Origin: Escherichia phage 285P
Direction: 5' to 3' (one strand)
Sequence record: NC_015249.1
DNA length: 39,270 bases
The position numbers and the translations under genes were made by a program. Under the pieces are notes generated by a model. The model did not search any database. It saw only the letters and a list, made by a program, of their open reading frames with translations, and had not been told where the DNA came from. Positions 5,452 to 39,270 of the stretch are shown piece after piece. How positions within the stretch are numbered: the stretch's first letter is position 1; every line of letters begins with the position of its first letter.

Positions 5452-5474
5452 TAATACGACTCACTATTGGGAGC
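5452..5474 (+). promoter_or_regulatory. T7-type promoter (phi1.1A-like) TAATACGACTCACTATTGGGAGC
   Basis: Seen: perfect -17..-2 match, T at -1; begins 8 nt after the RNAP stop. Confidence 0.8.
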
Positions 5475-5486
5475 CTTCGGGCTTCC

Positions 5487-5533
5487 TAAACTTTAAGATA
5501 CTTTAAGTTCTAACTTTAAGAGGAAACACAATC
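5487..5533. other. AT-rich segment with 3x CTTTAAG repeats; candidate primary replication origin region
   Basis: Seen: repeats at 5491, 5501, 5514. Inference from T7, where the primary origin is the AT-rich region just downstream of phi1.1A/B. Confidence 0.3.
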
Positions 5534-36712: not shown

Positions 36713-38470
36713 ATGTCTACTCAAGCAAACAAGAATGCGCTCATCGTGGCGCAACTTAAGGGTGACTTCGTGGCCTTCCTGTTCGTCTTATGGAAGGCTC
36801 TGAACTTACCTAAACCAACCAAGTGTCAGATTGATATGGCACGTACACTCGCTAATGGCGACCACAAGAAGTTTATCCTTCAGGCGTTCCGTGGTATCGG
36901 CAAGTCCTTTATCACCTGTGCGTTCGTCGTGTGGGTCTTATGGCGTGACCCTCAACTCAAGGTGCTCATCGTGTCTGCCTCTAAGGAACGTGCTGATGCT
37001 AACTCCATCTTCATCAAGAACATCATCGACCTGCTGCCATTCCTCTCTGAGTTGAAACCTCGACCGGGACAGCGTGACTCTGTGATTAGCTTCGACGTTG
37101 GCTTGGCGAAACCCGACCACTCACCTTCTGTGAAGTCTGTGGGTATCACTGGTCAGTTGACTGGTAGTCGTGCTGACATCATTATCGCAGATGACGTTGA
37201 GGTTCCCGGCAACAGTTCTACAAGCTCTGCTCGTGAGAAGCTCTGGACGTTGGTAACTGAGTTCGCTGCATTACTTAAGCCGCTGCCTACCTCTCGTGTT
37301 ATCTACCTTGGCACACCTCAAACTGAGATGACGCTCTACAAGGAACTTGAGGATAACAAAGGGTACAGCACAGTAATCTGGCCAGCACAGTATCCTCGCA
37401 ATGATGCTGAGGCTCTCTACTATGGGGACCGCTTGGCTCCGATGCTTAAGACTGAATACGATGAAGGCTTCGAGTTACTTCGTGGTCAACCTACTGACCC
37501 TGTTCGATTCGACATGGATGACCTCCGTGAACGTGAACTCGAATATGGTAAAGCTGGCTACACTCTTCAGTTCATGCTCAACCCGAACCTTAGTGATGCC
37601 GAGAAGTACCCGCTACGACTCCGTGACGCTATCGTGTGCGCTGTGGACCCTGAACGTGCCCCATTGTCTTACCAGTGGTTGCCGAACCGTCAGAACCGCA
37701 ATGAGGAACTCCCTAACGTTGGTCTGAAGGGTGATGACATCCATGCGTTCCATACGTGCTCTTCTCGTACCGCTGAGTATCAGTCTAAGATTCTGGTCAT
37801 TGACCCAAGTGGTCGCGGTAAGGATGAGACCGGGTATGCAGTCCTCTACTCACTGAACGGTTACATCTACCTGATGGAAGTCGGAGGGTTCCGTGGTGGC
37901 TACGATGATGCTACCTTAGAGAAGCTCGCTAAGAAGGCCAAGCAGTGGAAGGTACAGACAGTCGTCCATGAGTCCAACTTCGGTGACGGTATGTTCGGTA
38001 AGATTTTCTCTCCGATTCTCCTGAAGCACCATAAGTGTGCCTTAGAGGAAATCCGTGCTAAGGGCATGAAGGAGATGAGAATCTGCGATACTATCGAACC
38101 GTTGATGGGTGCGCACAAGCTGGTCATTCGTGATGAGGTTATCCGTGAGGACTACCAGACTGCTCGTGACCTTGATGGGAAACATGATGTTCGATATAGT
38201 GCGTTCTATCAGATGACCCGTATGACTCGTGAGCGCGGCGCTGTGGCACATGATGACCGCATTGATGCTATCGCATTGGGTATCGAGTTCCTTCGTGAAG
38301 GGATGCTTGTGGACAGCCGTGTAGGTGAAGAAGAGATGACTCTTGAGTTCCTTGAACACCACATGGAGAAACAGACCATTGGTGGTGATGCTATCCATAG
38401 CTACGATGTTGGTGGCGTGGACATCTACTATGAGGACGATGGAGACTCTAGCTGCTTCATTGAGTGGTAA
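36713..38470 (+). CDS. 19: terminase large subunit (DNA maturase B)
   Basis: 585 aa (T7 gp19 is 586); near-identity over long stretches as recalled ([56 protein letters not shown]). Confidence 0.97.
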
Positions 38471-38559
38471 TATAGATAAGTATGCGGGAAAGGTGCATAG
38501 GTAAGCACTTAGTACCGCTACGTTACCATTAAGTAACTTACTGATATACATGAAGAAAT

Positions 38560-38582
38560 TAATACGACTCACTATTGGGAAG
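38560..38582 (+). promoter_or_regulatory. T7-type promoter (phiOR-like) TAATACGACTCACTATTGGGAAG
   Basis: Seen in sequence; rightmost promoter. Confidence 0.8.
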
Positions 38583-38738
38583 GGCACCCTAAGACAACTT
38601 AAAGACACTTATAGACTGCATATGCAAAGTGCATACTTAGTGACTACTCTTAGAGACCCTTACAGTGAGGGATGATAGTAATAGTAATTACATCCCCACT
38701 ATCAGTGTAACCATCAAGTATAACAAGGAGGACGCTCT

Positions 38739-38834
38739 ATGCGCTTACTATCCGTGCTCAAGACACTGGCAACGCATCGAGTGACCTACAAATTTTCTCG
38801 CTGTACTTGCTGCTTCCATTGGTCTCGCATCTAG
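38739..38834 (+). CDS. small Cys-rich ORF (31 aa; gene 19.5 position)
   Basis: AAGGAGG RBS 7 nt upstream; MRLLSVLKTLATHRVTYKFSRCTCCFHWSRI. Confidence 0.3.
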   Translation: MRLLSVLKTLATHRVTYKFSRCTCCFHWSRI

Positions 38835-38984
38835 TGCTGAACACATCGGTGAACTGGAGACTCTGCTTTGTTCTCTACTCACTTGTGTTCCATAGACTGC
38901 TCATTGGCGCTTAGTGCGCTCTTAGTGATTATGGTCGATATACATCTTCCCTATAATCACTGTAAGAAGTCAACTGTAAGAGTA

Positions 38985-39225
38985 ACCCTTATGTACCCTC
39001 TATGGTCTACAGGGTCTCTTATGGTCTCACCTTATGATAGAGCCTCTGTGGTTAACCTTATGAGACTTGATGTACCCCCTTTAAGAATCCTACAGAAAAA
39101 TCTGAGAGGGTATCTCATAGTTCATACAAAGTGTTTCCCCCCTATGGCCTCCTTCAGTTCACCCAAAGAGTCGGCCCCTTATGGTAACTTATGGTTTACG
39201 TGAAGTCAATCCTTATGTGAGACAT
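38985..39225. repeat. right-end array of dispersed short direct repeats (C)CTTATG(G/A), at least 7 copies
   Basis: Seen: CTTATG at ~38988, 39018, 39030, 39056, 39177, 39188, 39213; typical of T7-family regions adjacent to the terminal repeat. Confidence 0.5.
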
Positions 39226-39270
39226 TGGGTTAACTCTAGGTGTTACCACTAGATATGGTGCTTAGTGATA

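Follow-up and report, generated by a model that had tools for sequence, protein, structure and literature searches.

The interval studied lies near the right end of the window (the whole stretch of 39,270 nt that was analysed), which according to its sequence is Berlinvirus and thus T7-like (Autographiviridae, Studiervirinae). The closest relatives of its last 870 nt were the Berlinvirus genomes PZJ0206, FE44, P694, BA14 and Kvp1 (93-97% identity). Gene 19, encoding the large terminase, ends at 38470 and is followed by a promoter element of the phage RNA polymerase type, TAATACGACTCACTATTGGGAAG (see Table 1); the equivalent element is annotated as phiOR in BA14 and Yepe2 and as phi19.2 in Kvp1, so that the term "phiOR-like promoter" of the original prediction was right. 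By analogy with T7 promoters, the phiOR transcript would start at G38577, and the interval 38583-38738 is, as read from the letters, the non-coding 5' leader between phiOR and gene 19.5.

Table 1. Features of the phiOR-gene 19.5 region and their positions in the window
Feature	Position	Strand	Basis or details
phiOR-type phage RNA polymerase promoter TAATACGACTCACTATTGGGAAG	38560..38582	+	sequence; one of ten promoter cores in the window
CTTANNGAC-type short-repeat array	38589..38663	+	starts of exact copies: 38598, 38608, 38636, 38649; degenerate copies: 38589, 38659
TGCATA/TATGCA cluster TGCATATGCAAAGTGCATA	38617..38635	.	palindrome and inverted repeat
Leader stem-loop	38664..38700	+	folding, uniqueness in the window, recurrence in relatives
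Spacer and gene 19.5 ribosome-binding site	38701..38738	+	AAGGAGG at 38725-38731, 7 nt before ATG 38739
Gene 19.5 homologue	38739..38895	+	one extra T in the run 38793-38796

The full leader (169 nt) is richer in A+T than the genome (59% versus 51%, with 67-70% in 30-nt windows across the hairpin) and, taken as a whole, folded with a z-score of −0.80 against shuffled sequences, i.e. without an excess of structure. The description as a structured leader could thus not be upheld for the entire 169 nt; one real hairpin and a motif cluster remain of it, and each of these two motifs is present at the site where it had been placed. Three parts were near-invariant among Berlin-type phages: the promoter, the initial 50 nt of the leader and the block from the Shine-Dalgarno sequence to the ATG, the last being the best-conserved part of the leader after the promoter. 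No sigma-70 promoter-like site was found in the leader.

The small Cys-rich ORF that had been noted behind the leader is, as the letters stand, a frameshifted copy of gene 19.5. As written, this 31-codon ORF stops at 38834: the T-run is TTTT in the window versus TTT in 28 relatives, and the downstream frame encodes the conserved 19.5 C-terminus LAVLAASIGLASSAEHIGELETLLCSLLTCVP and ends, once the frame is restored, at TAG 38893-38895.

The sole ORF across the leader (GTG 38665..38784, 39 codons) spans the hairpin and is annotated as "19.2" in Kvp1; the presence of this frame and its annotation are what speaks for a small protein gp19.2 encoded by the region. The frame is, however, disrupted by one-base indels that lead to stops after 14-19 codons in the leaders L006, L013, L014 and L023, L012 and L024 lack the context of the GTG start, and the sequence is rewritten by the inverted loop of the phage RN5i1 (see below); in total, start or frame is lost in 6 of 13 distinct Berlin-type leaders, and no Shine-Dalgarno sequence was found for the ORF. 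A protein-coding "19.2" was rejected since neither its start codon nor its frame is conserved, and we give it next to no credence; the leader is non-coding, as originally predicted. For annotation, this means that the "19.2" ORF should not be called a gene and that the 31-codon "19.5" of the window is to be treated as a frameshifted copy.

Short repeats in the 5' half of the leader

The inverted/direct repeat of the original prediction is present as TGCATATGCAAAGTGCATA, which contains the 10-bp palindrome TGCATATGCA (38617-38626) and the inverted repeat TATGCA-AAG-TGCATA (38621-38626/38630-38635), with TGCATA in two direct copies. The motif TGCATA/TATGCA was counted 19 times in the 39,270 nt; four of these copies lie between 38494 and 38635 and form the densest cluster of the window, and the motifs cluster on both sides of phiOR. 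The fold of TGCATATGCAAAGTGCATA was inconspicuous both as RNA (−7.3 kcal/mol, z −1.3, 24 of 200 shuffles at least as stable) and as DNA (z −1.1). The equivalent site of T7 reads TGCATA-AAG-TATGCA; T3 has direct ATGCA repeats only, the BA14 copy contains a mismatch, and no such motif is present in the L029 group (T7-like phages with a deviating leader, see below). As a structure, the TGCATA inverted repeat was rejected for its non-significant fold and its absence or alteration in T3, BA14 and the L029 group, and the palindrome, which is partly conserved, is weakly supported. A further inverted repeat of this kind, TATGCG-N7-TGCATA (38481-38499, z −3.0), lies after the gene 19 stop codon and has counterparts in T7, T3, L026 and L027.

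The surrounding sequence is an array of short repeats of the CTTANNGAC type: this motif occurs 12 times in the window versus 4.4 expected, 4 of the 12 copies being located in the leader, on the + strand and within 60 nt. The 13-bp unit CTTAGTGACTACT (38636-38648) is present in one copy here and forms a variable-number tandem repeat in relatives, with 8.7 copies in phage Berlin and intermediate numbers in Yepe2 and an AKS isolate; Yersinia pestis phages differ in its copy number, and the repeat might be of use as a marker for typing. Like the AT-rich regions that follow the replication promoters of T7 (phi1.1A/B of the primary origin, phiOL and phiOR), the leader is located 3' of phiOR, and the periodic, approximately 10-bp CTTAAAG/CTTTAAG repeats of its 5' half are also found 3' of the phiOL-like (146-250) and phi1.1-like (5452-5520) promoters of the window. 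In contrast to the leader, these two regions contain no comparable hairpin. Genome-wide, the heptamers CTTTAAG and CTTAAAG amount to 15 and 10 copies versus 2.5 expected; the repeats are a general trait of promoter-proximal leaders in this genome and not specific to the site.

The leader stem-loop and its recurrence in relatives

The stem-loop is built around the core helix GGGATG/CATCCC (38669-38674/38691-38696), to which an outer helix AGTG/CACT (38664-38667/38697-38700) is joined, with A38668 bulged between the two. Within the 16-nt loop between the core arms, ATAGTAATAGTAATTA, which consists of (ATAGTA)x2 and ATTA, an inner helix TAGT/ATTA of four pairs (one of them G.U) can form, leaving A38675 unpaired beneath it and an apical loop AATAGTA of 7 nt (38680-38686). 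The stem and the direct repeat in the loop had been correctly recognised in the original prediction; its outermost "GA...C" is unpaired (A.C), and the real structure is larger by the outer helix and the four inner pairs. RNA folding, which had been proposed as a check, yielded a hairpin of 14 bp with −14.6 kcal/mol and a z-score of −4.34, none of 200 shuffles being as good; as DNA, the stem-loop reached −7.8 kcal/mol and a z-score of −4.0, and it is thus more stable than shuffled sequence in both forms. The pattern GGGATG-N6-24-CATCCC occurs once in the window versus 0.03 expected. Perfect 6-bp stems with loops of 7-22 nt are common, with 90 cases in the window (approximately 1 per 440 nt); among these 90, the leader hairpin is the only one that combines at least 3 GC pairs with a loop of at least 75% A+T.

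Loci around homologues of gp19/gp19.5 were taken from IMG/VR and metagenomes, and T7, T3 and phiYeO3-12 were added; the comparison comprised 123 loci with a 19.5 homologue, corresponding to 74 distinct leaders in 27 sequence clusters. A lack of conservation had been named, together with a lack of transcript ends, as the finding that would speak against the original prediction; the stem-loop was found to be kept in Berlin-, T7- and T3-type and in more distant phages, and in the majority of the 74 distinct leaders it is located 19-45 nt before the start of 19.5. Single hairpins were unremarkable when compared with shuffles of their own 63-nt window (p about 0.02-0.2); combined over the 27 clusters, p was 2e-4 for the stem score and 1e-5 for the folding energy. 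RNA folds of the hairpins of T7 (39329-39354, six pairs 39329-39334/39349-39354), L029, L100 and L056 gave z-scores of −2.1 to −2.7. A convincing hairpin was absent in eight clusters (L025, L105, L124, L126, L136, L138, L051 and L058); in L105, the 19.5 homologue directly follows a homing-endonuclease ORF, without leader or hairpin.

The leaders displayed 11 distinct, complementary arm pairs. GGGATG/CATCCC represents the Berlin-type arms, and GGGATGG(T)/(A)CCATCC(C/T) is another variant; GGTGAT/ATCACC is shared by T7, T3 and relatives with no more than 53-55% identity in the C-terminal region of gp19, GGTTGT/ACAACC belongs to a T7-like group with an otherwise unrelated leader, and GAGGGT/ACCCTC, GGAGGG/CCCTCC and GGTGGT/ACCACC are further pairs. 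The hairpin is likewise present in the L029 group, the leader of which is otherwise unrelated in sequence to that of T7. The loop ranges from 7 to 22 nt, is AT-rich in the enterobacterial phages and gives way to a further short helix capped by a tetraloop in some distant relatives. Among Berlin-type phages, the hairpin is the most sequence-variable region of the leader and its pairing is retained; the base after CATCCC is C or T, C giving a G-C pair in the outer helix and T an additional A-T pair that extends the core. Within a clade, the hairpin keeps a nearly constant distance to the start codon (Berlin 41-44 nt, T7 33-35, T3 31-32, L029 group 19-20), in contrast to its distance from the promoter, which is free: in Yersinia phages, the 13-bp repeat adds up to approximately 100 nt.

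Salmonella phage RN5i1 carries the loop of its close relatives in exactly inverted form (reverse complement, 16/16 positions), the arms being unchanged. This resembles the minute inversions at hairpins in non-coding chloroplast DNA, in which small loops between short inverted repeats are inverted; in contrast to these, it is one case in 81 Berlinvirus records, and it informs on the mode of DNA mutation rather than on function. The records gave no sign of a regular flip-flop of the loop, the inverted orientation being encountered in this one only. The stem-loop tolerates changes in the length, the sequence and even the orientation of its loop.

Pairs were counted with our own script in a register anchored on the best stem of each lineage, i.e. 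fitted to the structure. In this register, 98% of the pairing cells were complementary versus 66% with shuffled partners (0/500), the covariation score was 0.81 versus 0.24, and three stem positions each displayed A-T, T-A and G-C. A sequence-only alignment (MAFFT) lined up the motif GGTG(A/G)TTAT instead and shifted the register of the stems between clades, and strict position-by-position homology of the stem pairs is uncertain. A covariance model built from the T7/T3-type hairpins performed well on T7/T3-type sites; its matches in Berlin-type phages reached no better than E of about 1-3, fell on both strands and were best on the repeat after gene 19.5 (see below). The structure exists, is thermodynamically unusual within the phage and, in the stem-anchored register, appears to have been kept in many relatives through changes in both arms; such changes with retained complementarity would point to selection for pairing and not for sequence.

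Quasi-palindromes can homogenise their arms via template switching, and the stem-loop might be one that has no function of its own and persists by descent and local bias (G-rich followed by C-rich arms of low complexity) in a tolerant non-coding spacer, its arms kept alike by occasional templated mutations. The stem of each lineage alone is within chance (p 0.02-0.2), 6-bp stems with 7-22 nt loops are frequent in the genome, arms of low complexity together with register shifts make true covariation hard to prove, and some lineages are devoid of the hairpin. Against this stand the recurrence at the same place over 27 clusters (combined p 1e-5 to 2e-4), the complementarity of all 11 arm pairs (shuffled partners pair in 66% of cells), the hairpin in the L029-group leader that is unrelated to the T7 leader, and a fold that is a clear outlier in the window (z −4.3). 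We consider the absence of function unlikely.

Transcript signals and the inverted repeat after gene 19.5

In T7, mRNAs are cut by RNase III at hairpins and terminated at the hairpin T-phi. By analogy with these intergenic stem-loops in transcripts, the leader element might be a 3'-end or processing signal (a phage or host terminator, or an RNase III site), as had originally been suggested. The sequence directly after the stem is CACTATCAGTG, without a U-run, and a terminator scan of 38300-39270 yielded no site; an intrinsic or class I (T-phi-like) terminator was rejected because a U-run behind a GC-rich stem is absent, and gene 19.5 with its strong Shine-Dalgarno sequence follows 28 nt downstream. 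In T7, the downstream gene is well expressed. In the RNase III sites of T7, the RNA is typically double-stranded over roughly two helical turns (approximately 20 bp), in most cases with an internal loop. The leader hairpin resembles the T7 sites R0.3 to R18.5 in being an intergenic hairpin of polycistronic T7-type transcripts, but it is much shorter and lacks the internal-loop architecture: its helix measures 14 bp in the window, where two single-base bulges interrupt it, and 6-10 bp in the hairpins of T7, T3 and the L029 group. Furthermore, no RNase III site is annotated at the leader position in the records of T7, T3 and phiYeO3-12. A processing site of this type was thus rejected, and a 3'-end or processing signal of any of these kinds appears very unlikely. 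A search of 38000-39270 against Rfam 15 (E<=10) returned only a spurious snoRNA match at 38254-38315 (14.5 bits versus a gathering threshold of 46). An operator for a dimeric DNA-binding protein was likewise rejected in view of the variable spacing of the arms (7-22 nt) and the inverted loop of RN5i1.

The original prediction had also considered a packaging-related structure. T7 concatemer processing reportedly involves a "hairpin end" (Chung, Nardone and Hinkle 1990), and a non-essential element "m" adjoins 19.5. The strongest inverted repeat of T7 is located at 39568-39608, 30 nt after the 19.5 stop codon and approximately 190 bp to the left of the terminal repeat; it probably corresponds to the published "hairpin end". 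Berlin-type phages contain a counterpart after gene 19.5, AGTGATTAT-N20-ATAATCACT (38924-38961 in the window), 28-32 nt behind the stop codon, with a compensatory change in PYPS50 (AGTGATAAT/ATTATCACT), and in T7, T3 and L108 a three-segment hairpin is kept at this site with compensatory changes. The leader hairpin shares with the "hairpin end" and "m" the nature of a non-coding inverted repeat of the right end, situated between phiOR and the terminal repeat, and arms that begin with a similar G-rich motif; it is, however, a separate, smaller element upstream of 19.5. Its identity with the concatemer-processing hairpin or element m was rejected, since it lies upstream of 19.5 and the repeat at 38924-38961 fits; the packaging idea, in the sense of such an identity, did not hold, the best-fitting strong repeat being the one behind the gene. 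In a search of the open literature, neither coordinates of the T7 hairpin nor a structure of the leader between phiOR and 19.5 were found (the 1990 work of Chung and Hinkle and the T3 pac-site papers were outside its scope).

The two repeats resemble each other to a limited extent. The model of the T7/T3 leader hairpins gave its top score in the window on the post-19.5 repeat (14.7 bits, E about 0.8), and direct comparisons of leader and post-19.5 repeats resulted in short alignments that were barely significant (p 0.04-0.27). An exchange of positions, suggested by the pattern AGGGAT.../...ATCCCT that is common to the Berlin leader hairpin and the post-19.5 hairpin of T7, was not borne out, the alignments being short and weak (p 0.01-0.28).

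These observations bear on the possibility that the leader stem-loop is a DNA-level inverted repeat of the right-end replication/packaging region. It would serve the secondary origin at phiOR or the processing of concatemers, acting in the strand displaced by transcription from phiOR or in the lagging-strand template and perhaps in concert with the post-19.5 repeat. In T7, phiOR is a promoter linked to a secondary origin, and the hairpin is positioned directly downstream of it, with equal stability on both strands. All 11 arm types are rich in G/T/A on the 5' side (G39 T17 A9 C1) and in C/A/T on the 3' side (C38 A18 T10 G0), which together with the motif GGTG(A/G)TTAT common to the clades hints at sequence-specific recognition. 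A second repeat with similar arms is conserved after 19.5 in Berlin-type phages, T7, T3 and L108, and the exact loop inversion of RN5i1 shows that the arms interact in DNA at least occasionally. On the other hand, a stem of 6 bp around a loop of 14-16 nt has little stability as DNA (T7 −3.3 kcal/mol, T3 −3.9, window −7.8) and is a poor candidate for a cruciform, a single one of the 81 Berlinvirus records has the loop inverted and gives no sign of regular flipping, the likeness of the two repeats is short and barely significant, and the hairpin contains neither a primase site (GTC) nor another known origin motif. Insertions near the genome ends of T7 were moreover mostly tolerated (PMC11482910). 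Taken together, we regard a DNA-level role as doubtful, though to be reckoned with.

A more specific and improbable variant would be that the leader and post-19.5 repeats form a related pair with G-rich/C-rich arms bracketing 19.5 in T7-like phages, which acts in single-stranded DNA during phiOR replication or terminal-repeat duplication; the RN5i1 inversion would then be the footprint of fold-back (hairpin-primed) synthesis. If this were true, a second, unrecognised cis element would be added to T7 concatemer processing.

A possible RNA element in the gene 19.5 leader

We favour the interpretation, to which we assign a tentative probability of roughly 0.4, that the stem-loop is a cis-acting RNA element in the 5' UTR of gene 19.5 on the phiOR transcript; it would act as RNA rather than as DNA, with an effect on the stability or the translation of the 19.5 mRNA. 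According to this model, the stem-loop would be carried by phiOR transcripts and by read-through transcripts from gene 19 and would represent a local RNA module whose action depends on the helix and not on the loop. As a barrier or insulator, the helix might stabilise the downstream 19.5 mRNA and hold the ribosome-binding site in a defined context. The position in the transcribed leader, 28 nt ahead of the Shine-Dalgarno sequence of gene 19.5, the clade-fixed distance to the latter and the tolerance of changes in loop length, sequence and orientation speak for an action at the RNA level, as do the DNA folding energies, which are about half of the RNA energies (in T7 and T3 the low values given above). 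Late in infection with wild-type T7, no phage transcript is more abundant than the 19.5 RNA (PMC6938266); such abundance is compatible with a stabilised RNA, but is no evidence for a role of the hairpin in it.

Other comparisons did not favour the transcribed strand. Among 37 variants, the mean folding energies of the two strands were −10.3 and −10.7 kcal/mol (Wilcoxon p 0.2, i.e. no difference), and G.U pairs were not in excess on the transcribed sense (26/410 versus 36/420 on the other). The T7 insertion screen, in which most intergenic sites of the genome ends were non-essential (PMC11482910), was also counted against an RNA role. A particular form of RNA action, an anti-Shine-Dalgarno switch, was considered: the C-rich 3' arm, which resembles the 3' end of 16S rRNA in T7-type phages, would mask the Shine-Dalgarno sequence unless held by the 5' arm. 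When the 5' arm was mutated in silico, the predicted accessibility of the Shine-Dalgarno sequence fell in no more than 4 of 19 lineages (mean from 0.30 to 0.24), and the switch, not being generally supported, was rejected.

As an RNA element of the kind proposed, the stem-loop would have parallels in the stabilising or insulating hairpins of bacterial and phage 5' UTRs, such as those of the ompA 5' UTR and the 5' stem-loop of the T7 phi10 leader: it, too, is a short stable helix upstream of a strong ribosome-binding site, here in a highly expressed phage transcript, and the helix is conserved with a freely varying loop. In contrast to these, the leader hairpin is situated 88 nt from the predicted 5' end and not at the end itself; in consequence, classical protection of the 5' end would come into effect only after an upstream cut. 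The leader stem-loop belongs to a familiar class of elements and is itself unannotated in all records that were inspected.

With phiOR, gene 19.5, the terminal repeat and the repeat arrays, T7-like genomes have at their right end the cis signals that are least understood in a very well-studied phage, and the duplication of the terminal repeat, the role of phiOR and the purpose of gp19.5 are among the puzzles of this end. The leader hairpin offers a small, defined target of six base pairs by which a role in 19.5 expression could be probed against one in replication or packaging.

The leader hairpin and its loop

The hairpin arms in the leader upstream of gene 19.5 were found to be strongly biased in composition. 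The set examined comprised 31 distinct variants (window 38669-38696 and the corresponding loci of relatives); among the 11 arm types, the 5' arm was nearly free of C (G39 T17 A9 C1) and the 3' arm was without any G (C38 A18 T10 G0). Across these arm types A-T, T-A and G-C pairs interchange, and the flip from G-C to C-G never occurs. The 3' arm of the T7/T3-type hairpin, AUCACC(U), is identical to the 3' end of 16S rRNA; neither the base bias of the arms nor this match was explained by any model tried. In Salmonella phage vB_STy-RN5i1 the loop (TAATTACTATTACCAT) is the exact reverse complement of the loop ATGGTAATAGTAATTA in two relatives (loci L013 and L019), the arms being unchanged; among 81 Berlinvirus records this orientation is restricted to RN5i1.

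Directly 3' of the hairpin, the 14-mer CTATCAGTGTAACC is identical at 13 of 14 positions to T7 CTATCAGTGTCACC (p about 0.01, local alignment), which in T7 has the post-19.5 hairpin on one side and the terminal repeat on the other.

Repeated motifs around the phage promoters

The 13-bp leader unit CTTAGTGACTACT is a variable-number tandem repeat: the window contains one copy (and one degenerate copy), an AKS Yersinia pestis phage approximately 3, Yepe2 approximately 6 and phage Berlin 8.7, and the 17 distinct Berlin-type leaders range from 176 to 307 nt in length. Periodic repeats of about 10 bp (CTATAAGA/CTTAAAG/CTTTAAG) follow the phiOL-like promoter at the left end (TTAATGCGACTCACTATTGAGAGA), the phi1.1-like promoter after gene 1 and the phiOR promoter; in the window, CTTTAAG is present 15 times and CTTAAAG 10 times (expected: about 2.5 each).

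A cluster of TATGCA/TGCATA sites flanks phiOR on both sides (4 of the 19 genome copies inside 140 nt), and the hexamer ATGCAT has zero copies across the entire window. Immediately 3' of the gene 19 stop, the window carries the inverted repeat TATGC(G)-N7-TGCATA, the counterparts after gene 19 being TATGCA-N7-TGCATA in T7 and TTATGCA-N7-TGCATAA in T3. In several relatives gene 19 is separated from the phiOR promoter by an inserted HNH homing-endonuclease gene; at locus L105 the endonuclease ORF extends to the ribosome-binding site of 19.5, and promoter, leader and hairpin are all absent.

Coordinates of features around phiOR and gene 19.5 (L-numbers: loci of relatives around gp19/gp19.5)
Feature	Window	Relatives
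Inverted hairpin loop	38675-38690	L006 629-644 (RN5i1)
13-bp tandem repeat	38636-38648	L004 577-689 (phage Berlin); L005, L007
TATGCA/TGCATA sites	38481-38499, 38617-38635	L009 235-255; L010 154-172
Promoter-proximal ~10-bp repeats	146-250, 5452-5520, 38589-38663	
HNH endonuclease insertions between gene 19 and phiOR or 19.5		L018, L020, L025, L029-group, L105
14-mer 3' of leader hairpin	38699-38712	T7 39688-39701 (L009 789-802)
Gene 19.5 with additional T	38739-38895	
T-run in gene 19.5	38793-38796	
Post-19.5 inverted repeat	38924-38961	T7 39568-39608 (L009 669-709); L010, L108

Gene 19.5 and the inverted repeat behind it

The 31-codon ORF, described as "Cys-rich" in the original prediction, is gene 19.5 with one additional T: its T-run reads TTTT in the window versus TTT in 28 relatives, and the +1 frame past this run leads into the conserved gene 19.5 C-terminus LAVLAASIGLASSAEHIGELETLLCSLLTCVP (stop at 38893-38895). 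Either the homopolymer was misread in sequencing, or the extra T is a mutation that inactivated the gene recently.

The 19.5 stop is followed, at a distance of 28-32 nt, by a second inverted repeat that is conserved. It reads AGTGATTAT-N20-ATAATCACT in the window, with a conserved spacer (GGTCGATAT..., including TGGTC); PYPS50 exhibits a compensatory change (AGTGATAAT/ATTATCACT), and the arms differ at loci L025 and L109. At this offset from 19.5, T7, T3 and locus L108 possess a hairpin made up of three segments, in which compensatory changes are seen. We regard the T7 concatemer-processing hairpin or element "m" as the probable identity of the post-19.5 inverted repeat.
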